From the NCBI GenBank assembly GCA_964439805.1, contig CAYTOI010000003.1:36844-100843 (forward strand): DNA of 64,000 bases. The letters are read 5' to 3'. Under the pieces are notes generated by a model. That model was given only the letters and a program-made list of their open reading frames with translations. It did no database searches and had not been told where the DNA came from. This DNA is from an uncultured Pseudomonadales bacterium. GTDB taxonomy: Bacteria; Patescibacteriota; Microgenomatia; UBA1400; MFAQ01. Position numbers and translations under genes: made by a program. Shown piece by piece: positions 7,202 through 64,000 of the stretch; position 1 is the stretch's first letter; every line of letters begins with the position of its first letter.

Positions 7202-7954
7202 TCAATCTACTTCCTTTAGTGTTTTCAACAAATACTCACAGTCCTCTGGCAGCGGTGCCTTTACTTCTACTTTTTCTCCAAACTCATCTTTAAAACTTAG
7301 ATAGTAAGCATGCAAAAAATGATGATATAGCAGATGTTTCTCTCTACTAAACTGCTTACCATTCAAATATTTTGCATCAGCAAAAATTGGCCAACCCAAA
7401 AAAGACAAATGAACTCGAATCTGATGAGTTCTGCCTGTTTTCAAACCTACGTCAAGTAATGACAAAGTATTTTTCCATTGCTCGTTTTCTGTGCCAAACT
7501 CAAAGTACTTCAATACTTTCCACATAGTTATAGCTTTCTTTCCATCAAACCGGACTTTCCATCTATCTCTATCAATGATGCTTCGTTTAAGTGGCAAAAT
7601 CACATCACCCTCTTTGGGGTCAACTCGTCCATGAACTAGAGCCAGATAAGATTTCGTAATTTTTCGATCTTTAAAAAGACCCAAAAAATACTTCATGGTG
7701 GTAGGATTCTTAGCAATAAGCAGACAACCACTAGTTTCTTTATCTAGTCTATGGCACACTCCACTTCTAGCTAAAAACAATTCATTATCTTGAGTTCTTG
7801 ATTCCTTGAGTTCTTGAGTTTTTAAATCATATCTACTCTCCACCCAGTCCTGTACCGTCCTGCCTTTTATCGAATCAGCTCTGTTAACCACCACCCCAAA
7901 GGGCTTATTAATTATCAAAAAGTTCTCATTCTCAAATAGTATTGGTAGATCCAT
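7202..7954 (-). CDS. RluA-family 23S rRNA pseudouridine synthase
   Basis: HRLDKETSG catalytic motif and GRTHQIRVH. Contains an in-frame family-A repeat insertion ([14 protein letters not shown]). Confidence 0.85.
   Translation of the reverse strand: MDLPILFENENFLIINKPFGVVVNRADSIKGRTVQDWVESRYDLKTQELKESRTQDNELFLARSGVCHRLDKETSGCLLIAKNPTTMKYFLGLFKDRKITKSYLALVHGRVDPKEGDVILPLKRSIIDRDRWKVRFDGKKAITMWKVLKYFEFGTENEQWKNTLSLLDVGLKTGRTHQIRVHLSFLGWPIFADAKYLNGKQFSREKHLLYHHFLHAYYLSFKDEFGEKVEVKAPLPEDCEYLLKTLKEVD
7788..7823. repeat. repeat family A copy, (GAGTTCTT)n octamer array, in frame inside rluA-family gene
   Basis: tcttgagttcttgattccttgagttcttgagttttt; 40 nt including flank identical to the copy in cysS at 39351-39390. 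Confidence 0.8.
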
Positions 7955-8360
7955 CTGGGCTTAGTATATACGACAATACCGAAAAGGTAATCAAAAGATC
8001 CGACAGATTCACCCACAGTCCTACAGTTTTGAAGATAATATAATCCCATACATCACCAAAAATAAGCCTAGGAAGTACGTTACCCAATGCCCCAAAAGCT
8101 AAAGCAATCAAAAATACGTTGACTCCCTTCCCCTTCCATACCAAAGAAAATATAAAACTCAAAAAAATAATTGCTGGCAAAACCAATACCCAAAAGTTCA
8201 AGTTCTGAGCAAAGCCAAAGGATATCCCTGAGTTTGCCAAGCCAAAATTTATTTTACGAAAGTGCGATTGTAGAAAAAAGTCCAGCAAAACAACTATCAC
8301 ACCGACCAACACAAACAGCGAACTAAAGCTGTCCTTTTTCTTTTTTGGATTCACATTCAA
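7932..8360 (-). CDS. lspA: lipoprotein signal peptidase II
   Basis: NSGISFGF and GALGNVLPRLIFGDVWDYI match the LspA conserved boxes; 4 TM segments. Confidence 0.7.
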   Translation of the reverse strand: MNVNPKKKKDSFSSLFVLVGVIVVLLDFFLQSHFRKINFGLANSGISFGFAQNLNFWVLVLPAIIFLSFIFSLVWKGKGVNVFLIALAFGALGNVLPRLIFGDVWDYIIFKTVGLWVNLSDLLITFSVLSYILSPDGSTNTI

Positions 8361-8709
8361 TACAGAACTCTGCTGTAGGAGTAATTGCCAATCTGTCAGT
8401 ATCTATCATCTTGTGACACGCTGTACAAATTCCATACTTACCCACCTTAATTCTAGCCAAAGTTTTTCGAATTGATATTATAGATCTACTTACCATTTTG
8501 CGCATCGCAAAGGCTCTATCGTGTTCTACGTTCTCTGCTACATCTGCATCAACAGAGTTATCATCATCTCGGTTACCAATTATAAAAGGATCAACTTTTT
8601 TTAGCTCTTTCTTTGAGTCTTTTAATTTTTTTTCTTCTCCTTTAAGAAATCGCACCAAAGGAGCTAACACTGTAGATGGGAAGCCTACTTTTTGATTCTT
8701 TTGTTCCAT
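8323..8709 (-). CDS. DksA/TraR-family C4 zinc-finger protein
   Basis: C-terminal CTACHKMIDTDRLAITPTAEFCIEC (CxxC...CxxC) typical of DksA/TraR. Confidence 0.65.
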   Translation of the reverse strand: MEQKNQKVGFPSTVLAPLVRFLKGEEKKLKDSKKELKKVDPFIIGNRDDDNSVDADVAENVEHDRAFAMRKMVSRSIISIRKTLARIKVGKYGICTACHKMIDTDRLAITPTAEFCIECESKKEKGQL

Positions 8710-9425: not shown

Positions 9426-9434
9426 AAGTCTCTA

Positions 9435-10015: not shown

Positions 10016-10047
10016 GAGTTTTGCGTTTTTGAATTTTAGAGTTTTTT
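10016..10047. repeat. degenerate repeat family A copy (intergenic)
   Basis: gagttttgcgtttttgaattttagagtttttt. Confidence 0.4.
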
Positions 10048-10606
10048 AATTCGCTCTCCCTGTATACTCCCCAGTTTCTGTATTTACCTTTATTGTGTCT
10101 CCCTCAGAAATGAACAAGGGCACCATTACAATTAAACCAGACGCAGTCTTTGCAGGCTTAAGAACGTTGCTTACCGTGTTTCCCCTAGCACCAGGTTCTG
10201 TCTCGGTAATGGTAACTATTACAGTGGCTTGTAGCTCTACTCCCAAGATCATTTCTCCCCAAAAAAGCACCCATGCCTTTTCACCTTCTACGAGATACAA
10301 ATAGTCGTCTCCCAAAATCTTCATAGGGATCTCTACCTGTTCAAAGGTATTAGGATCCATAAAATAGGCCTTATCTTCATCCTTGTACAAATACTGGAGG
10401 TGCTTCTTGTCCAAAGTGATATCTTCCACCATGTTGCCAGAAATATAGCCTTTGGTCTCAATTGAGCCTGTAAAAAGGTTCTTAGCCTTAACTTTAATTG
10501 TGGCGTGGCCTCTACCCATCTTGGTAAAGTCATACTTGGTTACACGATAAGGAGTACCTTCTTCGGTAAAAGTTACGCCTACTTTGAGCTTATTTACGTC
10601 AATCAT
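10046..10606 (-). CDS. efp: translation elongation factor P
   Basis: 186 aa with KPGKG-type motifs (FTKMGRGHATIKVKAKNLFTG) and the three-domain EF-P layout. Confidence 0.9.
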   Translation of the reverse strand: MIDVNKLKVGVTFTEEGTPYRVTKYDFTKMGRGHATIKVKAKNLFTGSIETKGYISGNMVEDITLDKKHLQYLYKDEDKAYFMDPNTFEQVEIPMKILGDDYLYLVEGEKAWVLFWGEMILGVELQATVIVTITETEPGARGNTVSNVLKPAKTASGLIVMVPLFISEGDTIKVNTETGEYTGRAN

Positions 10607-16579: not shown

Positions 16580-17223
16580 ACAAAAAAATAATCACAATTT
16601 TAGTTTTTTGCTTTTTTGTGTTTTTGACTTTTTCAAAAGCTGCAAATGCCGTTACCAGCACCCCATCCGCTACTCCTAGCATGCAACTAGAAGAAAAAAT
16701 AAAAACCCTAGTCAAAGAAAATCTCGAAACCACCGAAGGCTTAGTTCAAAAAGAAGTCGTCGCCAAGTCTCTCCTAGGCTATTCCGGAAAAGTAAAGTCA
16801 GTTGGTACCAAAAACATTACTTTAGAAATAGACAAAGACCTTCTCCAAATCGCTGTCCTCCCTACTACCACAATCACCAAAGCAGGTGCTGAAATAAAAA
16901 CATCAGCTCTAGCTCTAGGTGACAAGTTGATTGTCATTGGCTCAAAAACCAAAGATGCTGCTATAGAAGCAAAAGTCATCAATGTCATTCCAGAAGTTGA
17001 CGAAGCCACACTAGTAATCACCAAAGCCGAAGTAGCAATAATTTCCAAAATAGATCTTAAGAAAAAAACTTTTAGCCTAAACATCAAAGGCCAAGACGTT
17101 GCCTTCACTCTCTCAAAAAAATCGACCGTCAAACTAGAAAACTTCACCGATGGCGACCAAATCCTCGCAATCACAAAGAAGTACCAAGGCAAATTCTCCC
17201 TCTCCCGCGCAATCAAAATATAA
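16576..17223 (+). CDS. secreted protein with signal peptide
   Basis: Signal peptide (FSKAANA cleavage-like site); ATGA overlap with the upstream gene. Confidence 0.4.
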   Translation: MNKKIITILVFCFFVFLTFSKAANAVTSTPSATPSMQLEEKIKTLVKENLETTEGLVQKEVVAKSLLGYSGKVKSVGTKNITLEIDKDLLQIAVLPTTTITKAGAEIKTSALALGDKLIVIGSKTKDAAIEAKVINVIPEVDEATLVITKAEVAIISKIDLKKKTFSLNIKGQDVAFTLSKKSTVKLENFTDGDQILAITKKYQGKFSLSRAIKI

Positions 17224-17295: not shown

Positions 17296-17315
17296 ATTCA
17301 GACACTCCATATTTA

Positions 17316-17349
17316 GAGTTTTTGAGTTCTTGAGTTCTTGAGTTTTTTT
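17316..17349. repeat. repeat family A copy (intergenic)
   Basis: gagtttttgagttcttgagttcttgagttttttt. Confidence 0.75.
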
Positions 17350-17364: not shown

Positions 17365-18243
17365 ATGCCCGCTATTTCCAAAAACCGCTTTTTTGCGTAC
17401 TCCCTTCTATTGTTAAACTCCGCACTCTGGGGCTTTTCTGTTCCCATTATCAAGTACTCACTTCAATTCGTCTCCCCTCCCCTTTTCCTTTTTTATCGTT
17501 ATCTCCTCGCTACTTTTTTATTCTTTCCCATTTTTCTTATTTACAAAGCAAGAAACAAACACCAAAAAATAAATCATCAGCATCACATCACTCTCGCCCT
17601 TCTTGGTACTCCTCTCACTCTTCTCCCTCTTTTTTATGGTCTTATGGCCAGCTCTGCCATAGAAAGTTCTATTCTCGAGTCCTCTGCTCCCATCTTTGTT
17701 ATTCTTGGTGGACTAGTATATTTGAAAGAGAAAGTGAGACCAAAGGAATGGCTAGGAATCATTATTGCTTTAGCAGGAACTCTTTTTCTCAGTCTTTATC
17801 CCCTCCTCGGATCCACTGGTTTTAACAACCTTTCTCTCAAAGGTAATCTTTTAATCATCTTCAGCAACATTATCTGGGCAGCTTTTCTTATCATGAGCAA
17901 AAAGGACCACACCAACCCTATTTACCTTAGCTTTTATTCTTTTCTCCTCAGTATCCCTTTTTTCTTACTTATTTCCCTCAACAGTCCTACTAGCCTAAAC
18001 CTCAATCCTCAAGCTCTACCAGGAATCCTATACATGGCCATCTGCGGATCCATAATTGCCTTTTGGGCCTATATCGAGGGCCAGCGACGCATAGAAGCTT
18101 CCGAAGCTGCTATTTTTAGCTACCTGAAGCCAGCCTTTACTATCCCCCTCGCCTACATCTGGCTCAAAGAACCGTTCACACCTATAGCTGCCATCTCCAC
18201 GCTCGTCATCCTCCTTGGTGTATATCTCTCCGAGCACAGATAG
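17365..18243 (+). CDS. EamA/DMT-superfamily transporter
   Basis: 10 TM segments in two EamA-like halves; 292 aa. Confidence 0.65.
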   Translation: MPAISKNRFFAYSLLLLNSALWGFSVPIIKYSLQFVSPPLFLFYRYLLATFLFFPIFLIYKARNKHQKINHQHHITLALLGTPLTLLPLFYGLMASSAIESSILESSAPIFVILGGLVYLKEKVRPKEWLGIIIALAGTLFLSLYPLLGSTGFNNLSLKGNLLIIFSNIIWAAFLIMSKKDHTNPIYLSFYSFLLSIPFFLLISLNSPTSLNLNPQALPGILYMAICGSIIAFWAYIEGQRRIEASEAAIFSYLKPAFTIPLAYIWLKEPFTPIAAISTLVILLGVYLSEHR

Positions 18244-19126: not shown

Positions 19127-19150
19127 CCTGACATCTGAGATCTGAGAACT
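19127..19150. repeat. repeat family B copy (AGATCTG heptamer array), intergenic
   Basis: cctgacatctgagatctgagaactg. Confidence 0.6.
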
Positions 19151-19186
19151 GCAAACTTGCCCCAGGCGTGTTAAAATACTGGAGCT

Positions 19187-19570: not shown

Positions 19571-19600
19571 CTGACATCTGAGATCTGAAATCTGTGATCT
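19571..19600. repeat. repeat family B copy, intergenic
   Basis: ctgacatctgagatctgaaatctgtgatct. Confidence 0.6.
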
Positions 19601-22725: not shown

Positions 22726-22748
22726 CAATCCGCCTTTGGCGGATATTA
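22726..22748. repeat. conserved hairpin element caatccgcc-NNNN-ggcggatatta (copy 1)
   Basis: Nearly identical to 24241-24263; 7-bp stem atccgcc/ggcggat. Confidence 0.45.
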
Positions 22749-23963
22749 CTTGGGTTCTTGAGTTTTTGAGTTCTTCAGTTCTTTAAGTACTTCCAACGCC
22801 TTCTCCAACTGATTATCAGCCTTAGGATCTTTCTCATTATATTTAAACTCCACTTTCACATCTGGTTCAAGTCCATCACCATGAATATTTTTTCCAGAAG
22901 GAAGCAACCATTCAGCAATAGTAACGTGCAAAGATGAACCATCACCAATTTCTTGTGCTTCTTGTACAGTCCCTTTTCCAAAACTCTTCTCTCCTACTAG
23001 CTTAACCCCAAGTCTTTCTTTGAGCGCTCCAGCTAATATTTCTGACGCTGATGCAGAACCTTTGTTGATAAGTACTACAAGTGGCATACCAATTAGTTTT
23101 CCTTTGCGATCTACATTAAGAGACTCAGTCCCCTTTCTGTCTCGCTGAGAAACTATCACTCCATCACTTATAAACTCACTACCAAGGTCTACAGCTCTCT
23201 GTAGGTATCCACCAGGGTTATTTCGAACGTCTAGAATTACACCAGTAGCTTTTTTTGCTAGAATTTCTTTTACAAATCCTTCCCACTCTGGCAATGTTTT
23301 CTCTCCAAACTTGTTTACTCTTATTACGGCTACTTTGCCATTATCAATCCACTCAAGCTCTGTAGAAGGTACATTTATCATGTCGCGAACCAATGCAATC
23401 TCTTTACTTTGTTTTTCTTTTACTGAAAATATTGTAAGTTTCACGGTAGTCCCCTTTTCTCCTCGAATCAGATTAACTGCCTCCTCAAGACCAATTCCAG
23501 AAGTATCTTTCTTTACTCCCTTAGCCTCATCAACAATTTTCAAGATCAAATCCCCTGCCACAATCCCGGCTTTAGCTGCCGGACTGTCTTTGATAGGGCT
23601 CATAACCGCCAAAGTTTTCTCTACATACCCTAGCTGAATTCCGACACCACCAAATTCACCTTTAAGGTCTTCTTTTGATCTTGTATTTTCTACTGGTGGA
23701 AAAAAGGCAGTGTAAGGATCGCCCAAAGAAGCAGTCATTCCCTCAGCTGCCCCATACATGAGTTTTTTAGCGTCAATTGCTTCTGGCTTAAGATAGTCTT
23801 TCTTCAACCTCTCAAGGACATTATTCATGACCTTGGTGTTTACTTCACTAGGTACATTACTACTAGATAATAGCTGTCTCTCTTTATATACAGAGCCGCC
23901 TACAAACGACATTCCAGCAACAAAAATAACAACCAAAAAGTTACGAACGTTCTTCAAGTTCAT
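22746..23963 (-). CDS. ctpA: carboxyl-terminal processing protease (S41 family)
   Basis: PDZ plus S41 peptidase domain; N-terminal membrane anchor. The last 12 codons including the stop are built from a family-A repeat. Confidence 0.85.
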   Translation of the reverse strand: MNLKNVRNFLVVIFVAGMSFVGGSVYKERQLLSSSNVPSEVNTKVMNNVLERLKKDYLKPEAIDAKKLMYGAAEGMTASLGDPYTAFFPPVENTRSKEDLKGEFGGVGIQLGYVEKTLAVMSPIKDSPAAKAGIVAGDLILKIVDEAKGVKKDTSGIGLEEAVNLIRGEKGTTVKLTIFSVKEKQSKEIALVRDMINVPSTELEWIDNGKVAVIRVNKFGEKTLPEWEGFVKEILAKKATGVILDVRNNPGGYLQRAVDLGSEFISDGVIVSQRDRKGTESLNVDRKGKLIGMPLVVLINKGSASASEILAGALKERLGVKLVGEKSFGKGTVQEAQEIGDGSSLHVTIAEWLLPSGKNIHGDGLEPDVKVEFKYNEKDPKADNQLEKALEVLKELKNSKTQEPK

Positions 23964-25628: not shown

Positions 25629-25656
25629 AGAGCCACCGCAAGGTGGCTTTTTTATG
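25629..25656 (+). terminator. rho-independent terminator
   Basis: gccaccgcaaggtggc followed by TTTTTT. Confidence 0.6.
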
Positions 25657-26698
25657 CCCCTATCATGTATTCCACGACATCTCCGTCTTTCATCACATAT
25701 TCCTTTCCCTCCATCCCCACCTTGCCCTTCTCCGCCGCTTCCTTCCAACCACCTAGTGCCACAAAGTCATCATACTTACATACTTTGGCTTTTATAAACT
25801 TCTTTTCAAAATCAGTGTGAATTACTCCAGCTGCCTGAGGGGCTCTTGTTCCATCTGTTATCGTCCAAGCTCTAGTTTCGGTAACTCCAGTCGTCAAAAA
25901 GCTAATAAGACCTAAAGTTTCGTAAGCTTTACGAATCAATCTATCTAGCCCTGACTCATTTAATCCCATCTCAGCAAGAAACATTTCCGCTTCCTCCTCT
26001 GGCAAACTACTTATTTCCGCCTCTATCTTGGCAGAAACACACAAATCTCCTCCGCTCACTCTCAACCTAGCATCATTTTCACTCACATTAAACACTTTAA
26101 TCTCTTTCTTCGCAGTCAACATACACAAATCTTTCACCAGCTCCAGCTCATCAAAAGCCAAAATCTCCCTTGCGGGTTTATTTTCATTTAAACCAACCCA
26201 AAGTCTCTCAACTAATTCTTTTTTCTTTAACTGTCTTGGGTCCTTGAGTTCTGGAGTTCTAGAGTTCTTTACTTTATCTACTGTTTCCAAATCCTTAAGT
26301 ATCAGCTCAGTTTCTATTACTTCGTAGTCAGTTTTTGGATCAACACTCCCCTCTTTTACAATTTCTTTATCATTAAAGTCGCGCAAAACCTGAAGTATTA
26401 CGTCCACCTCTCTAATATGTGTCAAAAACTTGTTTCCAAGACCAGCTCCAGTAGCAGCTCCAGCTACAAGACCAGCAATATCTACAAACTCCACAGTAGC
26501 AGGAACAATTTTGACACTACTAGACATCTTAGCTAGCACCTCAAGACGCTTATCTGGAACCTCAACAATACCCACGTTCGGCTCAATGGTGGCAAAGGGA
26601 TAATTGGCTACCAAAGCTTGCTGCTTCTTTAGAAGCGCATTAAATAACGTCGATTTCCCGACGTTTGGCAACCCCACAATCCCTACTTTAAGTGACAT
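25652..26698 (-). CDS. ychF: ribosome-binding ATPase YchF (Obg-family GTPase)
   Basis: GIVGLPNVGKSTLFNAL P-loop; TGS-like C-terminus. In-frame family-A repeat (VKNSRTPELKDPRQ) in the central helical domain. Confidence 0.9.
   Translation of the reverse strand: MSLKVGIVGLPNVGKSTLFNALLKKQQALVANYPFATIEPNVGIVEVPDKRLEVLAKMSSSVKIVPATVEFVDIAGLVAGAATGAGLGNKFLTHIREVDVILQVLRDFNDKEIVKEGSVDPKTDYEVIETELILKDLETVDKVKNSRTPELKDPRQLKKKELVERLWVGLNENKPAREILAFDELELVKDLCMLTAKKEIKVFNVSENDARLRVSGGDLCVSAKIEAEISSLPEEEAEMFLAEMGLNESGLDRLIRKAYETLGLISFLTTGVTETRAWTITDGTRAPQAAGVIHTDFEKKFIKAKVCKYDDFVALGGWKEAAEKGKVGMEGKEYVMKDGDVVEYMIGA
26235..26270. repeat. repeat family A copy, in frame inside ychF
   Basis: tccttgagttctggagttctagagttcttt. 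Confidence 0.7.
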
Positions 26699-28176: not shown

Positions 28177-28311
28177 TTTGTCTTATAACCTTTTTAATAA
28201 AGGTAAAAATATATGTAACTGCTGAGATTGTAGCATAACTTTCTAAAAGTAAATACCATTAAATATTATAGAGTGCATTTATGCGATGTTTCGTATATAA
28301 TCCGCGTTGCT

Positions 28312-34870: not shown

Positions 34871-34891
34871 GGTACGATACTACCACATAAT

Positions 34892-36385: not shown

Positions 36386-36389
36386 GCCT

Positions 36390-46274: not shown

Positions 46275-46300
46275 AACCCGCCGAAAGGTGGGTTTTTTTA
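46275..46300. terminator. bidirectional terminator
   Basis: aacccgcc-gaaa-ggtgggtt followed by TTTTTTT; between convergent genes. Confidence 0.5.
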
Positions 46301-46906
46301 CATCCCTCGCCTGCCCTCAAAAGCTCTCAGAAGTGTCTGTCCATCAGCAAACTCTATGTCTGCTCCAGTCGGCAAACCTCTACCTATTCGGGTAACACTC
46401 ATACTACCAGCAAGACCCATGTCCTTAATTCTTTCTGCAATATACATAGCTGTCGCCTCCCCTTCCATATTTGGATTTGTAGCTAAAATAAGCTCTTCTA
46501 TCCCCCGTGTTTTAATTCTCGCTAGTAGCTGTGGAATTCTCAAATCATTAGGACCTATACCCGCCATAGGATTTATAATTCCACCCAAAACATGGTAAAC
46601 GCCTTTGTATCCCTCGGCTTTTTCAAAAGCCAAAAGGTCCAGTGCATTCTCCACTACACAAACTTGTTTTTTGCTTCTATTTGCGTCTTGGCAAACCGGG
46701 CAAAATTGTTCCTCACCCACATTAAAACAAAGTTCGCAAAACTTTGTATCTTTCTTTAATCGAGATAGTGATTCCCCAAATTTATCCAGCCTTTCTTGTG
46801 GCATATTCAACATGTAATAAGCCAAGCGGGCTGCCGACTTTGGCCCAATCCCTGGCAAGGCCTCAAAACCATCAATAACTTTCTGAACCGGACGAATACT
46901 TCTCAT
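46298..46906 (-). CDS. recR: recombination protein RecR
   Basis: C4 zinc finger (CELCFNVGEEQFCPVC), Toprim domain; 202 aa. Confidence 0.9.
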   Translation of the reverse strand: MRSIRPVQKVIDGFEALPGIGPKSAARLAYYMLNMPQERLDKFGESLSRLKKDTKFCELCFNVGEEQFCPVCQDANRSKKQVCVVENALDLLAFEKAEGYKGVYHVLGGIINPMAGIGPNDLRIPQLLARIKTRGIEELILATNPNMEGEATAMYIAERIKDMGLAGSMSVTRIGRGLPTGADIEFADGQTLLRAFEGRRGM

Positions 46907-46909: not shown

Positions 46910-47230
46910 CTACATTCCTTGTGGCAAATTTCCAAGAACTTTGGATAAGTCGCCCATAGAATCTTTCATTTCCTCAGCTGCATATTTTTGAGCTTTGGTA
47001 ATTGCTTCATTAATTACTTTTACTGCTTTGTTCATGTTTTCACCATCGATAAAAAGCTCTTTTAGTTTTCCATCTCCGGTAACTGATGCCTTTACTCCAT
47101 TTTCCTCAACTTCAGTTTTGTGACCAGCAATCTTTCGCTGTAGCAAAGCGAGTTTTGTAAGAGCTGCACCTTGTGATCCAAATTTTTTTATTCCGTCAAA
47201 CATATATTTTTGTATTTTTCTAACCTTCAC
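46910..47230 (-). CDS. ybaB: nucleoid-associated protein YbaB/EbfC
   Basis: 106 aa; conserved dnaX-ybaB-recR order. Confidence 0.7.
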   Translation of the reverse strand: MKVRKIQKYMFDGIKKFGSQGAALTKLALLQRKIAGHKTEVEENGVKASVTGDGKLKELFIDGENMNKAVKVINEAITKAQKYAAEEMKDSMGDLSKVLGNLPQGM

Positions 47231-47245
47231 ATTTTACCTCATTTT

Positions 47246-47316
47246 GAGTTTTTGCGTTTTTGCACTTTGAGTTTTATTTTCTTGAGTTCTTGATTTCTAG
47301 AGTTCTCGAGTTCTTA
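47246..47316. repeat. repeat family A, longest copy (about 9 degenerate octamer units), intergenic between dnaX and ybaB
   Basis: gagtttttgcgtttttgcactttgagttttattttcttgagttcttgatttctagagttctcgagttctt. Confidence 0.75.
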
Positions 47317-48831
47317 ACTAAATATCTTCTCCACATCCACCGCCACAGTATTCACATTCGCATCCTCCGAATTCGGCTCTGTCCTCGCCGGCATGTCTAT
47401 CAAAACCGTTTTCAATGTCACCGGTCCCCAAATTCTTTGCATTTCTTGTTCAATTATTTTTTTCTTTGTATCCCTCTCAATCATGTCTTGCTGAAAACGC
47501 GACTTTACTGACAAGGTCAAAGACTTTCCTTGCAAATCCATAGGTGCCGAGTTTCTTAGCATTCCAGCAAGAGACCCATTACTTGCTGCAAAATTATCCA
47601 AAAATCCTCCCCATTCTTCTTTTATTTTTTCTATCGATGCTTTCATATCAGCTACGCTCTCTAGAGAAACTACTTTATCAACTTCTTTTTTTTCTTCTAT
47701 CACTACTGGAATTTCCTCTACAGGTGCAGGACGAACTACAGTTTCAACCTTCCTTTCAATTGCTGGTGCTTTAGCCGGCTCTACTTCTTTCGGCACCCCA
47801 CCACCACTATTATTGATAGAACTAGACAAAATTGCCATCTCCAAAGGCAGTAACGGATCTGGAGATATTTTTATTTTCTCTGCCGAGCTGACTAGCCCAT
47901 CAACCAAAGCAATTAAACTGCGAACATTTGCCCCACTTTTTACCGATATTTCAATTTGAGATTTTAGATACGTAAGCATCGCTACCAAAACCACTTGAGC
48001 CTTTACCCCATTACTTTCCATAATCATAAAGCTCTCCACAACCTCAGAAGATTTTCCAGACAATGCCGCCTCAATCACTTTTTTGACCAAGACATTACTT
48101 ACCGATCCCAGGTTCTTATTTACCAAATCCCTGTCGATATCCACCCCAAAGCTAGCCAGCTGTTCCAGCACCTTGTGGGCTTCCCGGAAACTCCCGTCCG
48201 CCACCTCTGTAATGGCCTCCAAGGCCTCCATATCGGCTTTCAGCTTCTCTCCTGCAACTACACGCATCAGAGACTCTACCATCTCGGATTTGGTCGCTTT
48301 GGTGAAGTTTATCTTTGAGCACCTGCTGACTATAGTCTCAGGCACCTTGTGAGCCTCTGTTGTACAGAGAATAAACATGGCGTGCTTAGGAGGTTCTTCT
48401 AGGGTTTTAAGAAGTGCATTAAACCCAGCAGTAGACACCATGTGAACTTCATCGATAATATAAATTTTCTTTCTAAGCTGTAGCGGAGAAAGGCGAACTT
48501 TGTCTCTCAAATCTCTAATGTCTTCCACTAGTCCATTACTTGCCGCATCAATTTCTATTACATCTACACCACTTCCATGAATCAGAGATTTGCATGGTTC
48601 ACAAACCCCACATGGTTCATGCAACTCACTCACCAAATCTTTATTAAGATCACAATTGACAACTTGCGAAAGGATTCTCGCCGTACTAGTTTTCCCAGAT
48701 CCGCGAGGACCCACAAACAGATACGCATGAGACACTTTTCCACTTTTCAAAGCAGCCTCCAAAGCACCACGAACCGACAACAAATTCAGCTCTGCAATTT
48801 TTTGGGGTCGATACTTTTGGTAATAACTCAC
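47314..48831 (-). CDS. dnaX: DNA polymerase III subunit gamma/tau
   Basis: Walker A GPRGSGKTSTARIL; zinc module CGVCEPC; clamp-loader boxes. Confidence 0.9.
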   Translation of the reverse strand: MSYYQKYRPQKIAELNLLSVRGALEAALKSGKVSHAYLFVGPRGSGKTSTARILSQVVNCDLNKDLVSELHEPCGVCEPCKSLIHGSGVDVIEIDAASNGLVEDIRDLRDKVRLSPLQLRKKIYIIDEVHMVSTAGFNALLKTLEEPPKHAMFILCTTEAHKVPETIVSRCSKINFTKATKSEMVESLMRVVAGEKLKADMEALEAITEVADGSFREAHKVLEQLASFGVDIDRDLVNKNLGSVSNVLVKKVIEAALSGKSSEVVESFMIMESNGVKAQVVLVAMLTYLKSQIEISVKSGANVRSLIALVDGLVSSAEKIKISPDPLLPLEMAILSSSINNSGGGVPKEVEPAKAPAIERKVETVVRPAPVEEIPVVIEEKKEVDKVVSLESVADMKASIEKIKEEWGGFLDNFAASNGSLAGMLRNSAPMDLQGKSLTLSVKSRFQQDMIERDTKKKIIEQEMQRIWGPVTLKTVLIDMPARTEPNSEDANVNTVAVDVEKIFS

Positions 48832-50420: not shown

Positions 50421-50457
50421 TCTTGAGTTTTTGAGTTCTTGATTCTTTGAGTTCTTT
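50421..50457. repeat. repeat family A copy (intergenic)
   Basis: tcttgagtttttgagttcttgattctttgagttcttt. Confidence 0.7.
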
Positions 50458-50843
50458 TATGTGGTTCCCCCTGGCTCCTTGGCCGATCCTCCCAGAATGT
50501 GCACGTGTTCATGCTCAAAATGGTTGTATCCTGCTCCATTGTTGACCAGTTTGTAGCCCGTCTTGTCCAATCCAAGCTCCGTAACTACAGTAAAAACCGA
50601 CAACATCATTTTACCCCAGAACTCACTCAATGTCACCCCCACATTTGGAGCCTCAATCCAAGCTTTTTTAGCCTCGTGGGATTTGGGAATTACTAGCACA
50701 TGGACCGGTGCTACAGGATATTTGTTCTCAATGCACATAAACTCCTCATTCTCCCAAACAATGACCGCTGGCTCCTCCTTGGCCGCTATTTTGCAAAACA
50801 GACACTTTTCATCTTTCATATCAAAATAACTTAATAATGTCAC
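50457..50843 (-). CDS. HIT-family (histidine triad) nucleotide hydrolase
   Basis: HEHVHILGG HxHxHxx motif; N-terminal CLFCKI. Confidence 0.8.
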   Translation of the reverse strand: MTLLSYFDMKDEKCLFCKIAAKEEPAVIVWENEEFMCIENKYPVAPVHVLVIPKSHEAKKAWIEAPNVGVTLSEFWGKMMLSVFTVVTELGLDKTGYKLVNNGAGYNHFEHEHVHILGGSAKEPGGTT

Positions 50844-53894: not shown

Positions 53895-53961
53895 TACAAA
53901 ACAGCCCCGTAAATCGGGGCTGTTTTTCGTTATTTCGAGTTTTTGATTTATTGAGTTTTTA

Positions 53962-54414
53962 TTATTTCACTCCTAGTTTAAACCTAGCAAATCTCATTAC
54001 TCGGATGTTTTCACCAGTTTTACCAATTAGCTCTTTGACTAATTGTTCCATTGTCTTACTTCCATCTCGGATATAAGCCATAGCCATAAGATCTTCTACT
54101 GTTTCTGGGTTCATAGAACAGATTTGCATAGCAATTTCTTTGCAAAGTTCAGAAAACTCTGGGTTATTGGCCACAAAGTCTGTTTCACAAGCTACTTCTA
54201 CCATGGCAGCAGCCACACCACCATTGTGGGTGTAACAAAAAACTTTGCCACTGTTTACTTCACGGTCAGATTTACTTTCCGCCTTGGCCAAACCCTTGGC
54301 TCTAATAATCTCAATAGCTTTTTGCAAGTCGCCTTTGGTTTCATCCAAAGCATTCTTAGCTGCCATTACTCCAGCACCAGTAATCTCTCTTAATTCCTTG
54401 ATTTTGTCTAACAT
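53962..54414 (-). CDS. tsf: translation elongation factor Ts (short form)
   Basis: UBA-like N-terminus LREITGAGVMAAKNALDETKGDLQKAIE; 150 aa, single dimerisation subdomain. Confidence 0.85.
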   Translation of the reverse strand: MLDKIKELREITGAGVMAAKNALDETKGDLQKAIEIIRAKGLAKAESKSDREVNSGKVFCYTHNGGVAAAMVEVACETDFVANNPEFSELCKEIAMQICSMNPETVEDLMAMAYIRDGSKTMEQLVKELIGKTGENIRVMRFARFKLGVK

Positions 54415-54415: not shown

Positions 54416-55408
54416 TTATTTTGATTTTAAATTTTTTAATCCGGTTTCTAATGCTCTGCCTAGTTCTCCAATAACAATTTCCAAGCCTTTAGCTGAGTCA
54501 TCATTCATAGGAATAACATAATCTACTTTATCAGGGTTTGCGTTAGAGTCTACCAAACCAATTACAGTAACACCTTTACTGTGAGCTTCTTTTACAACCA
54601 ACTTTTCTTTGTGTGTGTCTATTACCACAACCACTTCTGGAGCTTCTTTGAGGGTAGAAATACCACCGACAATTCTCTCAAGTCGAGAAATTTCTTTATC
54701 AAAAAGAATTTGTTCCTTTTTGGTATATTTCTTAAGATTTCCTTCTTCTTTGTCTTTTTTAAGCTTGTTCAATCGATCTATGGTTAGTTTTACTTGTTTC
54801 CAGTTGGTAATCAGTCCACCCATCCAGCGTTGGGTAATAAAAGGTACTCCAAGTCTTCTGGCTTCATCTTCTACCATTTGTTTGGCCTGTCTCTTGGTTC
54901 CTACTATTACAATTCTCTTGCCTGTACTGGCCAAAGTGGAAAGTGTCTTGCAAGCTTCTTCTAAACCTTTTACAGTTTGTTCCAAATCAAAGATGTGAAT
55001 TCCGTTCATAGAACCCCAAAGGTAACCTTTCATTTTTGGATTCCATTTTTTAACTACGTGTCCGTAGTGAGCACCAGCTTCAAAAAGCTCTTCTACGGTT
55101 ACCTTACTTCCTGCAACTCGAGGAGTCTTGACTACTTCTGGAGCTACTTCGACAGCAACTTCTGGGGTTACTTCTGCAACTACATCAGCCACAACTTCTA
55201 CTGGCTCAACAGCCACGACAGCTTCTTTTTTAACTACTTTCTTAGGGGTTTTTGCAACAGCCTTTTCGGCGACTACAGCTTTTTTACTTACACTTTTAAC
55301 TTTTTCTGTCTTGAGTTCTTGAGTTTTTGAGTTCTCGAGTTCTTTAACAGCCTTCTTAACTACTTTTTTGGGAGCTTTTTCCTCCACTGTTTTTGCGGCT
55401 TTAGCCAT
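54416..55408 (-). CDS. rpsB: 30S ribosomal protein S2 with ~95-aa low-complexity N-terminal extension
   Basis: S2 core from VEELFEAGAHYGH onward; A/V/E/K-rich N-terminal extension containing an in-frame family-A repeat. Confidence 0.9.
   Translation of the reverse strand: MAKAAKTVEEKAPKKVVKKAVKELENSKTQELKTEKVKSVSKKAVVAEKAVAKTPKKVVKKEAVVAVEPVEVVADVVAEVTPEVAVEVAPEVVKTPRVAGSKVTVEELFEAGAHYGHVVKKWNPKMKGYLWGSMNGIHIFDLEQTVKGLEEACKTLSTLASTGKRIVIVGTKRQAKQMVEDEARRLGVPFITQRWMGGLITNWKQVKLTIDRLNKLKKDKEEGNLKKYTKKEQILFDKEISRLERIVGGISTLKEAPEVVVVIDTHKEKLVVKEAHSKGVTVIGLVDSNANPDKVDYVIPMNDDSAKGLEIVIGELGRALETGLKNLKSK
55309..55345. repeat. repeat family A copy, in frame in the rpsB N-terminal extension
   Basis: tcttgagttcttgagtttttgagttctcgagttcttt. 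Confidence 0.75.
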
Positions 55409-56486: not shown

Positions 56487-57251
56487 TTAAATCTCTGCCA
56501 AGTTTTCGTACAGACCCACTACTGTCAACGGACCAACACCATTTGGCACTGGAGTAATCAAACTGGCTTTCAAACCTGCCTCTTTTGAAATATCTCCTTT
56601 GGGATAACCTAAATCTATTCCTATATATCCATCTGTCACCATATCTTCGGTAATCAATCCCTCAACTCCAGTAGTACTTATAATTACATCAAACTCTTTC
56701 AGTCTACTGAGATCATCTCCTTTATCAAAACCCTCAAAAGGTAGTCTCAAAACATTAAGTCTCTCCCCTATTCTTTTTCCAACCATTCCATTTGACCCTA
56801 CCAAAGCAATCTTCTGATCATCATCAATATTAAAACTTTCCACAACTCTCTCCACAGCTCTAACTGCAGCAGGTAAAAATTTACTCTGAGGATTCAATCC
56901 ATCCACATCTTTACTTGGTTTTATCATTCCCAAAATCTCCGCCCTACTGACATCTGATATCTGAGATCCGAGATCTAATATTGGCAACTGAATCAATATC
57001 CCGTCCACAGTGACATCTTCATTCATATCAATTAGCATATTTTTCAAGTCTTCCACATCGTGGGCAAAAATAACATGAACCAAAACTCCAAGCCTCTCCC
57101 CCATCTCGGTTTTTAGCTTTACATACTGACTCATCTCAGTTTTGCCATCACATTGAAAAATCACCAAACTTTTACCCAAAAGTTTCTCACTTTCTTCCAA
57201 AAATGTCGCAATCTTTTCTGCCTCTTTTTTTCCATTAAATACAATATTCAT
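56487..57251 (-). CDS. folD: bifunctional methylenetetrahydrofolate dehydrogenase/cyclohydrolase (short form)
   Basis: KDVDGLNP and ITPVPNGVGPLTV motifs. In-frame family-B heptamer repeat (GSQISDVS). Confidence 0.8.
   Translation of the reverse strand: MNIVFNGKKEAEKIATFLEESEKLLGKSLVIFQCDGKTEMSQYVKLKTEMGERLGVLVHVIFAHDVEDLKNMLIDMNEDVTVDGILIQLPILDLGSQISDVSRAEILGMIKPSKDVDGLNPQSKFLPAAVRAVERVVESFNIDDDQKIALVGSNGMVGKRIGERLNVLRLPFEGFDKGDDLSRLKEFDVIISTTGVEGLITEDMVTDGYIGIDLGYPKGDISKEAGLKASLITPVPNGVGPLTVVGLYENLAEI
56947..56978. repeat. repeat family B copy, in frame inside folD
   Basis: ctgacatctgatatctgagatccgagatctaa. Confidence 0.65.
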
Positions 57252-58769: not shown

Positions 58770-58814
58770 AACTACAAACTTAAACCATATCTCAACGATT
58801 GTCCATCCTTATTT

Positions 58815-58840
58815 TGAGTTTTTGATTTTTTGAGTTTTTT
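58815..58840. repeat. repeat family A copy
   Basis: gagtttttgatttttgagtttttt, directly 3' of the Nramp gene. Confidence 0.6.
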
Positions 58841-60150
58841 CACTTCCCCCAATTCCAAAACATCAAAAGCACCGACAGTGCCATAAACACAAAAGTAATC
58901 CAAGCAATTACCAAATATTTTTTCTCAGTTTTAAACTTCCCCACCACGTCTTCCCTACCAGCAAGCTTAATGATTATAAAAATAAGCGGCACAGCCACTA
59001 CACCATTTACCACAGCCGCATAATACAATGCCTGCATAGTATTAATTCCAAACAAATTCATAAAAACGCCTACCATAGTAGCCACTGCCAAAATCAAATA
59101 AAATCCCTTTGCGGAACTAAACTTTTTATTCAACCCCTCCTTAATACCCAGCGCTTCTGAAACTGCATAAGCTACCGACCCAGCCAACACTGGAACAGAC
59201 TGCAAGCCTATACCAATAATTCCAAAAGCAAACAATAGATAGGCAAATTCTCCAGCAAGAGGTCTGAGGGCGAGAGCTGCTTGCTCCGCACTTTGTATTT
59301 CAAAAATTCCATTTGCATGCAAAGTCCCTGCAGTAGTAACCACAATAAAAAAAGTCATCAAGTTGGAAAACAACATTCCCACCTTCGTATCCAACCTCAT
59401 CTTTTTAATTTCACTCATATTTACCACCGGCTTTTGTCCGAAATCCGATATCTGATATCTGACATCTGAGATCTCTTCCTCCACTTCTTGTGAAGCTTGC
59501 CAAAAAAATAAATATGGCGAAATTGTCGTCCCCAAAAATCCCACTAAAGTCATAATGTAGTCTGTACTCCAATCAATTCTGGGAACCAGAGTCACTTTCA
59601 AAATCTCTAGCCAGTCAGGGTGAATCATAAAAGCCGTAATCACATAAACTACTAACGAAAGACCAAGCCACTTCAGCACTTCAGAATATTTTTTGTACGG
59701 TACCCAAATCTCCAAAACCACCACAAACATGGCAACCAGAAATAGCCAAAAGATAAAGTTCAGCCCAAAAACCATTTGCAATGACGAAGCCATAATCCCC
59801 AGATCAGCTCCAATATTTACAATATTTGCAAATGCGAGAAGTGATACAGCAAACCACATTACTCTTTTGGAACTAAACTTTTTAAGAATTCCAGCTAAAC
59901 CTCTCCCTGTAGTCATCCCTACTCTGCCACACATCTCTTGAATAGATATCATGGCTGGCAGCAAAAACAGAGCAAGCCATGTCATCCCAAAACCAAACTT
60001 TGCCCCAGCAATAGAATAAGTAGCTATTCCGCTCGGATCATCATCTGCCGCGCCGGTGACAAAACCTGGACCAACTCTTTTTACAAACTTTTTAAAAAAT
60101 ACCGGAAACTTCATTAATCTAATAATACACAAAAAAGACCCTATCACCAA
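58840..60150 (-). CDS. mntH: Nramp-family divalent metal cation transporter (MntH-like)
   Basis: GPGFVTGAADDDPSGIATYSIAGAKFGFGMTWLALFLLPAMISIQEMCGRVGMTTGRGLAG matches the Nramp N-terminal consensus; 11 TM segments. In-frame family-B repeat. Confidence 0.85.
   Translation of the reverse strand: MVIGSFLCIIRLMKFPVFFKKFVKRVGPGFVTGAADDDPSGIATYSIAGAKFGFGMTWLALFLLPAMISIQEMCGRVGMTTGRGLAGILKKFSSKRVMWFAVSLLAFANIVNIGADLGIMASSLQMVFGLNFIFWLFLVAMFVVVLEIWVPYKKYSEVLKWLGLSLVVYVITAFMIHPDWLEILKVTLVPRIDWSTDYIMTLVGFLGTTISPYLFFWQASQEVEEEISDVRYQISDFGQKPVVNMSEIKKMRLDTKVGMLFSNLMTFFIVVTTAGTLHANGIFEIQSAEQAALALRPLAGEFAYLLFAFGIIGIGLQSVPVLAGSVAYAVSEALGIKEGLNKKFSSAKGFYLILAVATMVGVFMNLFGINTMQALYYAAVVNGVVAVPLIFIIIKLAGREDVVGKFKTEKKYLVIAWITFVFMALSVLLMFWNWGK
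59445..59475. repeat. repeat family B copy, in frame inside the Nramp gene
   Basis: ccgatatctgatatctgacatctgagatctc. Confidence 0.65.
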
Positions 60151-61666: not shown

Positions 61667-61672
61667 AGCATC

Positions 61673-61948
61673 CTATTTTTCTTCAATAAACAAGCACTCA
61701 ACCTCATCAGTACTATTGTGCTTTTCAAAGGCAGCAATAAAAGCCCGCTTGATACTCTCGGTAGGTGTGTATGCATAAACCGATAAAGTTTTTCCTGCTG
61801 TAATTTGGCAACTTCCAACCATACGCTTGTTAACATCATAAATTCCAAACCCAACACCCGGAGCAATACGGATCCTGTAATTTTTCGGAATTACCTTTAA
61901 AATGCTTTCCTTTGAATCACTTTCTACCTGCACTTTTACGATTTTCAT
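61673..61948 (-). CDS. hypothetical small protein (91 aa)
   Basis: ORF; paralog of 60795..61028. Confidence 0.35.
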   Translation of the reverse strand: MKIVKVQVESDSKESILKVIPKNYRIRIAPGVGFGIYDVNKRMVGSCQITAGKTLSVYAYTPTESIKRAFIAAFEKHNSTDEVECLFIEEK

Positions 61949-61961
61949 TCAACCTCCAAAA

Positions 61962-62231
61962 CTACTGAAATTTTTCAGAATGTTTATCTTTAACTAAACC
62001 GCAAATTGCCCTGCCATAGTCGTCTTTTGTAAAAACAACCACTGCTTTCTTTTCATCTTCAAAAGATACAGTTGCCAAAAGACCTAATCCCCAATAAACC
62101 TTATATTCATCATCACATTTTTCTATACGAAAAAGGAACATCAGGTCTTTAAAAATTTCCTTAACAAAATCTTCATTGTCGCCAGCAAAATTTAAAAAAT
62201 CAGATTTGTAGAAAAATAGAGTCACGGCCAC
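61962..62231 (-). CDS. hypothetical small protein (89 aa)
   Basis: ORF only. Confidence 0.3.
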   Translation of the reverse strand: MAVTLFFYKSDFLNFAGDNEDFVKEIFKDLMFLFRIEKCDDEYKVYWGLGLLATVSFEDEKKAVVVFTKDDYGRAICGLVKDKHSEKFQ

Positions 62232-62265
62232 CTCCAGACTATTATAATGTTAAGTACTTATAGGC

Positions 62266-64000
62266 TTATTTTACCACATCAACTTCACTGTCAGTCTTTG
62301 GTTCTGGCTTCTTCCAGCTTGCCCAGGTACAGTTTGGATAATCTTCACAGCCATAAAAGTCCCTATTTTTACTCGTTTTCTTCTGGACCACTCTCTTTCC
62401 ACACTTCTCGCAGACCACGTCTGGAATATAAATTATGTAAGGCGCTTTGTACTTACATTCAGGATATCTATTGCAGCTTAAGAACTTCCCAAACTTCCCG
62501 TCTCTGATTACAATATTCCCCTCTTTGCACTCTGGACATTTCTCCCCTGTCTCTTCTGTTGGCACCCCTACCCTAGCCGAGTCCTTGTCCACCTTTACAA
62601 TTTGCTCACTAAATAGTCCCCAAAAATTTGAGAGCATCTTCTCCCAGTTAAGTTTTCCGGCTGCAATTTCGTCTAGCTCTGTTTCCATCTTGGCCGTAAA
62701 CTCGTATTCCATTTCTTTAGCAAAGTTCTCCACCAAAAAGTCGACAACTGCTTTACCAATTGATGTGGGGTAGAATCTTTTCTCTTTTTGCTCTACGTAT
62801 CGCCTGTCAATAATCGTGGAAATAATTGCCGCGTAAGTACTAGGTCTTCCTATTCCCCTCTTTTCTAGCTCTTTGATTATCGAAGCGTCATTAAACCTTG
62901 CTGGTGGCTGAGTAAATTTCTGCTCACCCTTTACTTCTTTTTTCTCCAAGGTCTCTTCTGGAGCCACTTCTGGCAAAGTTTGAGAATCTTCTTCACCATT
63001 TTCGGACTTTACTTTGTCTTTGGGAAATAGTTTCTTCCAACCATCAAATACTGTTACCACTCCATTTGCAGTTAACAAGTATTTCCCAGAAACCACCTCT
63101 ACTCTTGTGTCGTCAAATATTGCTTCTGCCATCTGACAGGCCACAGTTCTTCGCCAAATTAAAGAATAAAGTTTTTTCTGATCGGGGTCGGACTCTCCCG
63201 TAAAGTTTTCTGGAGTCACAGTCAAATTTGTCGGACGTACCGCTTCGTGAGCTTCTTGAGCTACTACTTTACCTGCAGTTTTATAAAGCTTAGGAGCAGT
63301 AGGTAAATACTTTTCCCCATAGTTTAATTTAATAAAGTCTCGGACAGCTTCAATGGCCACAGGTGCCAAATTAAAAGAGTCAGTACGGTGATAGGTAATA
63401 TCTCCCTGTTCGTAAAGCCTCTGAGCCACATTCATAGTTCTCTTTGCTGACCAGCCCAAAGTGTTTGCTGCAGCTTGCTGCAAAGTAGAAGTTTTAAATG
63501 GTGCGTAAGGATTTGCTTTTCTCTTTGTCTTTTTTACATCAGCTACTTTATAAGTTCCACTTTCCAAGTCCCTAAGAACTTGTTTTGCCAATTCCGAATT
63601 ATTTACTTCCTGTTTCTTGTCACTAATCTTTGCGAGCTCCACCCAAAAGTTTTCTTGAGTTCTAGAGTTCTTGAGTTCTTGAGTTCTTAATAGTACCCTA
63701 ATCTGCCAATACTCCTGTGGCTTATGTGCTTCTATTTCTCTCTCTTTTTCTACAATCAATCTCACAGCAACACTCTGCACTCTACCAGCCGAAAGCCCTC
63801 TTCGCACTTTCTTCCACAAAATTGGAGAAAGTTTGTAGCCCACCAAACGATCCAAAAATCGCCTCGCCTGTTGCGAGTTAACAAGATCCATATCTATCTC
63901 CCTAGGGTTATCCAAAGCCTCCAAAATTGCATCTTTGGTAATAGAATGAAAAGCAATTCTCTTAAAAACCTTATCTTTTTTCTTTTTACTTTCACTGTCT
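62266..64000 (-). CDS. topA: DNA topoisomerase I (partial; N-terminus lies beyond the window end)
   Basis: Topo IA core (RFLDRLVGYKLSPILW, GRVQSVAVRLIVERE), catalytic-Tyr region ITYHRTDS, three C-terminal C4 zinc ribbons. In-frame family-A repeat. Confidence 0.9.
   Translation of the reverse strand, partial: DSESKKKKDKVFKRIAFHSITKDAILEALDNPREIDMDLVNSQQARRFLDRLVGYKLSPILWKKVRRGLSAGRVQSVAVRLIVEKEREIEAHKPQEYWQIRVLLRTQELKNSRTQENFWVELAKISDKKQEVNNSELAKQVLRDLESGTYKVADVKKTKRKANPYAPFKTSTLQQAAANTLGWSAKRTMNVAQRLYEQGDITYHRTDSFNLAPVAIEAVRDFIKLNYGEKYLPTAPKLYKTAGKVVAQEAHEAVRPTNLTVTPENFTGESDPDQKKLYSLIWRRTVACQMAEAIFDDTRVEVVSGKYLLTANGVVTVFDGWKKLFPKDKVKSENGEEDSQTLPEVAPEETLEKKEVKGEQKFTQPPARFNDASIIKELEKRGIGRPSTYAAIISTIIDRRYVEQKEKRFYPTSIGKAVVDFLVENFAKEMEYEFTAKMETELDEIAAGKLNWEKMLSNFWGLFSEQIVKVDKDSARVGVPTEETGEKCPECKEGNIVIRDGKFGKFLSCNRYPECKYKAPYIIYIPDVVCEKCGKRVVQKKTSKNRDFYGCEDYPNCTWASWKKPEPKTDSEVDVVK
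63653..63689. repeat. repeat family A copy, in frame in topA
   Basis: tcttgagttctagagttcttgagttcttgagttctta, encoding RTQELKNSRTQE. Confidence 0.8.

Follow-up and report, generated by a model that had tools for sequence, protein, structure and literature searches.

A short repeat recurs throughout a 64,000-nucleotide stretch of contig CAYTOI010000003.1 (assembly GCA_964439805.1, positions 36,844 to 100,843 of the forward strand), from a genome deposited as an uncultured Pseudomonadales bacterium; we refer to the whole of this stretch as the window. Tandem Repeats Finder reports period-8 arrays with the consensus TCTTGAGT/GAGTTCTT at 7788, 17316, 22749, 26246, 39358, 39553, 47279, 50423, 55309, 58812, and 63652. 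Over the whole window the 16-mer GAGTTCTTGAGTTCTT, with up to two mismatches allowed, is found at 25 places on the plus strand and at none on the minus strand (0.08 expected). We then scanned both strands with the 36-mer (AAGAACTC)4AAGA, taking as a site any match of at least 24 of the 36 bases. This gave 14 sites in minus-strand sense and none in plus sense, against 0.1 in shuffled sequence, and added degenerate copies at 10019–10054, 16598–16633, and 47242–47277. An initial annotation of the window, made from its letters alone, had described a dispersed octamer repeat of one orientation, and both the repeat and its orientation are borne out. Copies occur about once per 5 kb, and a ~1-Mb genome would carry roughly 200 copies of the 36-base element. 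The copies in the window are the following.

7788–7823, minus strand: units AAAAACTC AAGAACTC AAGGAATC AAGAACTC and AAGA, in frame in a gene for an RluA-type pseudouridine synthase (7202–7954)
10019–10054, minus strand: degenerate A-rich copy (25/36) that begins at the stop codon of efp (10046–10606)
16598–16633, minus strand: degenerate copy (24/36) in the spacer of two plus-strand genes, antisense to both
17312–17347, minus strand: intergenic, 17 bases before the start of a plus-strand EamA transporter gene (17365–18243), antisense to both neighbors
22748–22783, minus strand: last 11 codons and stop codon of the S41 protease gene ctpA (22746–23963)
26234–26269, minus strand: in frame in ychF (25652–26698), in the helical domain, with no length change against Thermus YchF
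39358–39393, minus strand: in-frame copy 2 of cysS (39234–40613), codons ~407–419
39553–39588, minus strand: in-frame copy 1 of cysS, codons ~342–353
47242–47315, minus strand: a copy whose first bases complete the stop codon of dnaX (47314–47316), then a degenerate copy at 47242–47277
50421–50456, minus strand: copy right after the stop codon of a HIT-family gene (50457–50843), ~70 bases upstream of the next gene
53925–53960, minus strand: A-rich three-unit variant AAAAACTC AATAAATC AAAAACTC between the tsf stop codon and a terminator hairpin
55309–55344, minus strand: in frame in the N-terminal extension of rpsB (54416–55408)
58812–58839, minus strand: A-rich three-unit variant right after the stop codon of an Nramp transporter gene (58840–60150)
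63645–63688, minus strand: in frame in a variable segment of topA, whose open reading frame (ORF) runs past the window end

Pfam assignments place seven copies in frame in six genes, those for the RluA-type synthase, CtpA, YchF, CysRS (two copies), ribosomal protein S2, and TopA. The hosts named in the initial annotation are thereby confirmed, including the ctpA stop codon and the S2 extension, as is the preservation of the reading frame in each. Another five or six copies begin at or right after the stop codons of efp, dnaX, the HIT-family gene, tsf, and the Nramp gene; the two at 47242–47315 together fill the dnaX-ybaB spacer. The initial annotation placed every host gene on the minus strand; not every neighboring gene is there, since the copies at 17312–17347 and 16598–16633 lie between plus-strand genes. 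Nor do the arrays range over three to nine units: a copy is nearly always 4 to 4.5 units long (32–36 bases), and in related genomes 53 of the 64 distinct copies consist of exactly four AAGAACTC units plus AAGA (36 bases, 12 codons).

In the logo of the octamer unit, AAGA-ACTC, all eight positions are informative. Positions 4 and 6 covary (A..C in 298 units, G..A in 25), and this covariation defines a second unit type, AAGGAATC, found mainly as the third unit. Three-unit A-rich copies, AAAAACTC AAAAAATC AAAAACTC, recur just 3' of stop codons. The sense strand contains neither stop nor start codons and, because 8 and 3 have no common factor, yields one cyclic peptide, KNSRTQEL, from all three frames, which is what allows the element to reside in genes. 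The complementary strand carries TGA in each of its three frames. All three reading phases are occupied among the in-gene copies. For the sense RNA the calculated folding energy is 0 kcal/mol, with 200 of 200 shuffled sequences folding at least as well, and the complement folds no better than shuffles. Flank logos of the 64 distinct copies reveal no duplicated flank that would mark a target site and no family-wide conserved tail beyond AAGA, only tails specific to subfamilies; these logos and the folding calculations likewise give no sign of terminal inverted repeats or hairpins in the element. When Rfam was run over the window, a tRNA-Leu gene alone reached the gathering score and nothing did so at the repeat sites, and a permissive search of 47150–47400 returned a single chance-level match below gathering.

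The codons that make up the arrays are minority codons (AAG 33%, AAC 39%, TCA 15%, and CTC 9% of their synonymous families), so codon bias is not the source of the motif. The initial annotation had named such a bias as one finding that would overturn its reading; the codon tables, together with the shuffles, rule out both it and chance as the origin. All the repeats represent a single discrete nucleic-acid element of fixed length, (AAGAACTC)4AAGA, that is specific to a lineage of Collierbacteria-like genomes in the candidate phyla radiation.

An exact scan of one genome per species found many matches in Candidatus Collierbacteria, as well as in one bin labelled Woesebacteria and several labelled Pseudomonadales. 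The window is syntenic with Collierbacteria GW2011_GWB2_45_17 at ~70% nucleotide identity. A relative 85% identical to the window (locus L085) was recovered through CysRS, and a metagenome scan with the 36-mer contributed ~35 more loci of the lineage. Four "uncultured Pseudomonadales" bins (L017, L020, L030, and L041; CAYSAM01, CAZPFY01, CAYHNG01, and CAZUFH01) carry the repeat family and share synteny, at 69%–72% nucleotide identity, with both the window and Collierbacteria; their Pseudomonadales labels look wrong. No rRNA genes were present in any locus recovered. Arrays of the AAGAACTC octamer also occur in Acidobacteriota, Chthoniobacterales, Bacteroidales, and Paenibacillus, where they vary in length, have other flanks, and show no association with skew; these are probably separate repeat families. 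In the Acidobacteriota bin MFD09964.bin.1.111 (CAVONV01, loci L003–L065) they often lie directly upstream of Shine-Dalgarno sequences and start codons, and those of Chthoniobacterales-like contigs adjoin a conserved flank, AAGAAGAACCAACAGTCCCGCGCCGAGGTC. Loci L026, L033, L063, L088, L095, L112, and L140 also have octamer arrays outside the lineage.

Comparison of orthologous sites tells how copies arrive. In a Dus-like gene the copy is a clean insertion of 48 bases (L071 versus L032), and the ctpA copy adds 24 bases relative to L148; at this last site the copy of L047 lies 3' of the stop codon and L030 has none. The rluA copy encodes a variable loop upstream of the HRLD motif, where the RluA-type protein is 13 residues longer, and the topA segment that holds the copy is 6 residues longer than in Escherichia coli TopA. 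The YchF copy, on the other hand, aligns to Thermus YchF without a gap. Among 120 YchF homologues one 17-residue stretch passes from RESKDLR-VKGME-KKR through KNSKDLK and KNSKNQE-LKTNE to KNSRTQE-LKTDE at constant length, and array-like states of the site appear on several branches of the neighbor-joining tree. The CysRS copies replace variable linkers of similar length and are confined to one to three of the nearest homologues, copy 1 to the window genome and a 90%-identical relative and copy 2 to the three closest homologues. The view of the segments as insertions therefore stands for the Dus-like gene and ctpA and fails for YchF, with no change of length, and for CysRS, with its linker replaced; a model of pure insertion is ruled out by the same two cases. 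Judged from these alignments, the element both inserts and overwrites. It does so only in tolerant places (variable loops, linkers, protein ends, and intergenic spacers), and the proposal that its coding copies sit at tolerated sites is upheld.

Several features show that the copies are related by descent from one another. The rluA copy and cysS copy 2 share 40 of 40 bases including flank, as had been noted in the initial annotation. Unrelated loci have 3' flanks in common, namely TAATGAA (rluA and cysS copy 2), TATTGAA (a TsaD-like gene and the Dus-like gene), TGAGG, and CAGTTAAAG (ychF and rpsB); 5' flanks are not common between loci. Together with the variant unit AAGGAATC, these shared 3' flanks establish that copies have been made from one another, and spread is by templated copying that carries along a few bases of the donor's 3' flank. 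Slippage in situ alone is ruled out by the fixed length, the position-specific variant unit, and the donor flanks in common. Some copies fit the recent spread suggested earlier, but those in topA, rpsB, and ychF, at the 3' end of ctpA, and upstream of the EamA gene are orthologous with the ~70%-identical genome. Copies also cluster, with two each in cysS, rpsB, and the Dus-like gene and three in the topA gene of GW2011_GWB2_45_17 (L055 3805–5886). The latter three fall within 600 bases and include one in the Toprim domain; in the window genome, the matching 5' portion of topA falls past base 64000.

The copies keep their bases, synonymous sites included, over long divergence. Between the window and LCKO01 (~70% identical), 32 of 38 third codon positions within the topA, rpsB, and ychF copies are identical, compared to 44% elsewhere in those genes (P = 4e-7). 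At positions where the amino acid is identical, the codon is identical in 29 of 33 cases within copies and in 46% outside them in the comparison with the ~70%-identical genome (P = 6e-7). Against L085 the figures for third positions are 36 of 38 in copies and 65% outside (P = 2e-5). Over all locus pairs, ortholog sites are bimodal: the copy is either absent or identical at 32–36 of 36 bases, with flanks that are 67%–83% identical. The rpsB copy matches its GW2011_GWB2_45_17 ortholog at 36 of 36 bases despite diverged flanks, and the topA copy matches that of L055 at 35 of 36. Orthologs even have non-consensus bases in common, in the rpsB units GAGAACTC and AAAAACTC and the ychF unit CAGAACTC, and the retention of such idiosyncratic variants fits descent under constraint better than constant homogenization. 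With three reading phases in use, synonymous sites kept, and the variant unit and 3' flanks in common, the earlier proposal of a nucleotide-level element, as opposed to a convergent peptide, holds, and we infer that the unit under selection is the nucleic acid and not the peptide.

Unit number in genes is equally stable, being the same in relatives 85% and 70% identical (for L085, both cysS copies and ychF), while intergenic copies vary from 4 to 21 units. The copy upstream of the EamA gene is orthologous to one of six units in L035 and one of four in L030; at this site L149 and L150 have a terminator hairpin where the window has the copy. The longest and most variable arrays (4, 11, 12, 16, and 21 units; L101 9599–9975, also L072, L097, L099, and L100) follow a duplicated 3' half of tRNA-Arg(CCG), 35 bases long and ~160 bases downstream of the intact gene. 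Such a duplicated half is the usual scar of an integration event, and the arrays lie just upstream of a HAD-hydrolase gene.

The orientation of the element obeys a nearly absolute rule. In ~60 loci of the lineage (562 kb; a few loci from elsewhere escaped the composition filter), AAGAACTC is on the G-rich strand in 87 of 89 copies; of the two that deviate, one is in an Omnitrophota genome and the other is L137:3115. Genes whose sense strand is G-rich contain 43 copies and C-rich-strand genes, which make up 31% of coding sequence, contain none (P = 1e-7). The intergenic copies at 17312 (conserved in three genomes) and 16598 (degenerate) are antisense to both neighbors, yet obey the rule, and the GC skew of the window continues through its regions of plus-strand genes. 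Orientation thus follows the G-rich DNA strand and not merely the strand of the host gene. Composition does not explain this polarity, since the element is AC-rich in its sense on a strand that is GT-rich overall and isolated octamers are unskewed. No switch of skew is found in any locus recovered of the lineage. Complete genomes of the order that includes Collierbacteria are reported to have a GC skew of one sign round the whole chromosome, for which one-directional replication has been proposed (PMC7143001), and we therefore state the rule relative to the G-rich strand.

A second, smaller family in the window follows the same strand. It consists of tandem heptamers, (ATNTCAG)3–5, in minus-strand sense at 19128–19151, 19571–19600, 56947–56976, and 59443–59474, with further copies in L018, L030, and L098. 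No stop codon interrupts its sense strand, TGA appears in every frame of its complement, and 7 of 7 distinct copies of the lineage are on the G-rich strand. Two heptamer copies, in antisense orientation, closely precede the plus-strand genes for L31 and RF-1.

What might such an element do? With somewhat less than even confidence, we favor a strand-polar signal that is read at the DNA level and maintained as nucleic acid. The grounds for preferring this are the synonymous sites kept, the variant bases common to orthologs, the lack of copies in C-rich-strand genes, and the conserved antisense copies. The reading of (AAGAACTC)4AAGA would depend on strand or direction, and the most plausible form of it is that four ACTC boxes at 8-base spacing act as a cooperative array bound by a putative lineage-specific factor. 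The factor could bind the duplex, or else the G-rich strand in its single-stranded state during the one-directional replication proposed for the order, and relatives without the factor would be expected to lose arrays or never to gain them.

Several observations weigh against a DNA-level signal. Close relatives with equal skew are copy-poor (none in the 12.5 kb of L148, a single degenerate one in the 21 kb of L150), so any function must be dispensable. The exception at L137:3115 is a clear one, a post-stop copy in the sense of a C-rich-strand gene, and one or two independent intergenic copies are all that separate DNA strand from transcript sense. Outside arrays the AAGAACTC octamer is neither enriched nor skewed (15 versus 6 in 383 kb, with rotations balanced). 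The G-rich strand is presumably, by inference, the leading strand. Conservation at synonymous sites could also be obtained by concerted evolution among the ~200 copies. Finally, Pfam detects no ribbon-helix-helix or ParG-like domain among the ~70 ORFs of the window, the only sequence searched for one; genes for a reverse transcriptase, an HUH transposase, FtsK, RecBCD, or AddAB were not found in the window either.

The main alternative, which we regard as possible but doubtful, is a selfish or neutral mini-element with no cellular function, its 36-base unit copied to fresh sites and on top of older copies by a replication-coupled, strand-specific process such as template switching or the annealing of single-stranded (GAGTTCTT)n DNA or cDNA to a strand exposed in replication. 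It would persist through its harmlessness to coding, the likeness of its copies would come from concerted evolution, and its polarity would be a by-product of copying. Much of the evidence above agrees with this, including the presence/absence polymorphism and clean insertions at ortholog sites, the donor 3' flanks that travel with copies, the clustering of several copies in single genes, the array-poor sister lineages with equal skew, and a low-GC glycosyltransferase island at 28–38 kb, probably a recent acquisition, that is copy-free. The YchF site, array-like on separate branches with no change of length, is as expected of biased conversion. The idiosyncratic bases are harder to accommodate, as orthologs keep them across saturated synonymous divergence (two non-consensus bases among the 36/36 of rpsB, and CAGAACTC in ychF). 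Frequent homogenization should erase such variants, and rare homogenization would not conserve the remaining bases. Nor does the window encode a transposase, reverse transcriptase, or single-strand annealing protein, and the element is without the terminal inverted repeats, target duplications, and hairpins that known single-strand transposons require.

It is rather unlikely that the element acts in cis at the RNA level. Its sense, (AAGAACUC)n, is unstructured, as the folding energies show, richer in C than in G, and free of starts and stops, and might serve for ribosome standby or re-initiation between cistrons, for Rho loading, or as a site for an RNase or RNA-binding protein, with coding copies either by-products or tuning translation. 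The five or six window copies that start at a stop codon or no more than a few bases away from one, and take up the space before the following gene, would suit such roles, as would the long copies just upstream of the HAD-hydrolase gene and the Acidobacteriota arrays directly upstream of start codons, and L137:3115, which breaks the strand rule, is oriented in the sense of its gene. However, a signal in the transcript should be present in sense in C-rich-strand genes too, where 0 of 43 copies are seen against ~19 expected. The copies at 17312 and 16598 are antisense to both neighboring genes, and most copies are deep in coding regions, where the RNA is covered by ribosomes.

Less likely again is a reading in which the copies are orientation-specific signals tied to the unusual strand asymmetry of the whole chromosome, and would be tandem boxes free of structure on the strand that becomes exposed in single-stranded form. 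They might be landing sites, for example for lagging-strand priming or the loading of a single-strand-specific factor, or might be written into the exposed strand by annealing single-stranded (GAGTTCTT)n DNA or cDNA, which would be a natural form of oligonucleotide recombineering. Either version would account jointly for the strand polarity, the overwriting at constant length, and the upkeep of the consensus.

We consider it very improbable that the element is a protein module, that is, that the 12-residue peptide KNSRTQELKNSR is selected, for example as a charged linker or an interaction tag on housekeeping proteins. All frames do give one cyclic peptide, and the coding copies are at surface-like variable segments and termini. 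Yet synonymous sites are conserved and the codons are non-preferred, about one-third of copies are non-coding (post-stop or intergenic) with unchanged sequence, the AAGGAATC variant occurs in two reading phases and hence as different residues, and the strand rule has no rationale at the level of protein. A contingency microsatellite, proposed in the initial annotation, in which slippage would change unit number and so switch genes or alter proteins, draws on the differing intergenic unit numbers (4 versus 6 upstream of EamA; 4, 11, 12, 16, and 21 beside tRNA-Arg) and is the least credible reading, because coding copies measure 36 bases in every relative compared, their hosts are essential housekeeping genes, and 53 of 64 copies are equal in length.

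Comparison to known systems places the family close to several and within none. Rickettsia palindromic elements (RPEs), to which the initial annotation likened it, are, with other in-frame miniature insertion elements, likewise dispersed, non-autonomous, in frame at tolerant surface positions of housekeeping genes, and polymorphic in presence and absence. The likeness holds for in-frame residence and fails for structure, as RPEs are 100–150 bases long, palindromic, and hairpin-forming, whereas the element here is a 36-base direct octamer repeat without self-complementarity whose sense RNA does not fold. Further differences from RPEs are its restriction to one DNA strand, the conservation of its synonymous sites, and its occasional overwriting of sequence with no change of length. 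Chi, the KOPS and SRS motifs that orient FtsK and SpoIIIE (FtsK orienting polar sequences and SpoIIIE recognition sequences), and "architecture imparting sequences" are single G-rich octamers, enriched and skewed as isolated copies. They resemble the element in the 8-base unit, the very strong bias with respect to replication-associated asymmetry, the occurrence about once per 5 kb, the residence in coding sequence, and the conservation at the nucleotide level. In the element, however, only tandem arrays of ~4 units are polar, and these are AC-rich on the G-rich strand and missing from close relatives. A single-octamer signal of the Chi or KOPS kind is made unlikely by the octamer counts outside arrays.

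The box layout has its own parallels in operator and centromere arrays of ribbon-helix-helix proteins. MetJ metboxes are tandem short boxes with an 8-base period. On the parH/OF regions of plasmid TP228, ParG recognizes ACTC boxes with AT-rich spacers of 4 bases between them, and each box takes up one ribbon-helix-helix dimer; a single box does not suffice, the requirement being about four or more (PMC3130281). The layout (AAGA-ACTC)4 matches this arrangement of box and spacer, and the usual copy has four boxes, a likeness that serves as a lead only. ParG and MetJ arrays are single local sites beside their own operons and tolerate inversion of boxes, whereas the element has ~200 dispersed, strictly oriented copies, many of them in genes. 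DNA uptake sequences (DUS in Neisseria; uptake signal sequences, or USS, in Pasteurellaceae) are single 9–12-mers found about once per kb in both orientations, often as inverted pairs. Like the element, they are lineage-specific motifs in tolerant parts of coding sequence and near terminators, conserved across species, and they may owe their upkeep to molecular drive instead of any gain for the cell; unlike them, the element is tandem and strand-locked. The short tandemly repeated repetitive (STRR) heptamers of heterocystous cyanobacteria and contingency loci are also dispersed tandem repeats with a 7–8-base unit. STRRs are mainly intergenic and strand-locking is not known for them, and contingency loci vary in coding unit number, which copies of the element do not. 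The family thus unites separately known features (the in-frame residence of RPEs, the polarity and density of Chi and KOPS, the box layout of ribbon-helix-helix proteins, and an accumulation like that of DUS) and fails a defining feature of each. A literature search found no published description of the family or of the 16-mer GAGTTCTTGAGTTCTT, and likewise nothing relevant on repeats in the candidate phyla radiation.

The ~1-Mb genomes of the candidate phyla radiation have almost no spare DNA, yet this lineage carries the element in ~200 copies, many in essential genes or operons (topA, cysS, rpsB, ychF, and the dnaX operon). Its base-for-base preservation there implies selection or drive on the nucleic acid acting through coding sequence, and its unit, with an 8-base period, no stops, and one peptide in all frames, is proof against the reading frame. 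The near-absolute polarity offers a handle on the unexplained one-signed GC skew of Collierbacteria and related bacteria and on their mode of replication. Discovery of a factor that binds the copies, or of a mechanism that writes them, would be new chromosome biology within a large section of the bacterial tree that is uncultured. As a practical marker, the family has exposed several Pseudomonadales-labelled bins that are syntenic with Collierbacteria.

Other features of the window were noted in passing. The low-GC block spans 28273–38458 (GC 0.33–0.34, compared to 0.39–0.42 elsewhere) and holds glycosyltransferase and polysaccharide-synthesis genes, mostly on the plus strand. It sits where L085, L148, and L150 carry nadA, nadB, and nadC, contains no octamer copy, and is probably an acquired island. 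S2, encoded by rpsB (54416–55408), carries ~100 extra N-terminal residues in which Lys, Ala, and Val are abundant, and has a period-12 repeat at 55132–55176. Elongation factor Ts (tsf, 53962–54414) has only 150 residues and matches the first 76 of the 204 positions of its Pfam model. Within recR (46298–46906) there is a 25-base tandem duplication at 46334–46382 (two copies, 84% match). An ORF of the YebC/TACO1 family at 5033–5557 encodes 174 residues and covers the first third of the Pfam model for the second domain; the ORF at 4203–5030 that follows it (275 residues, no Pfam match) may be part of a split or diverged gene.

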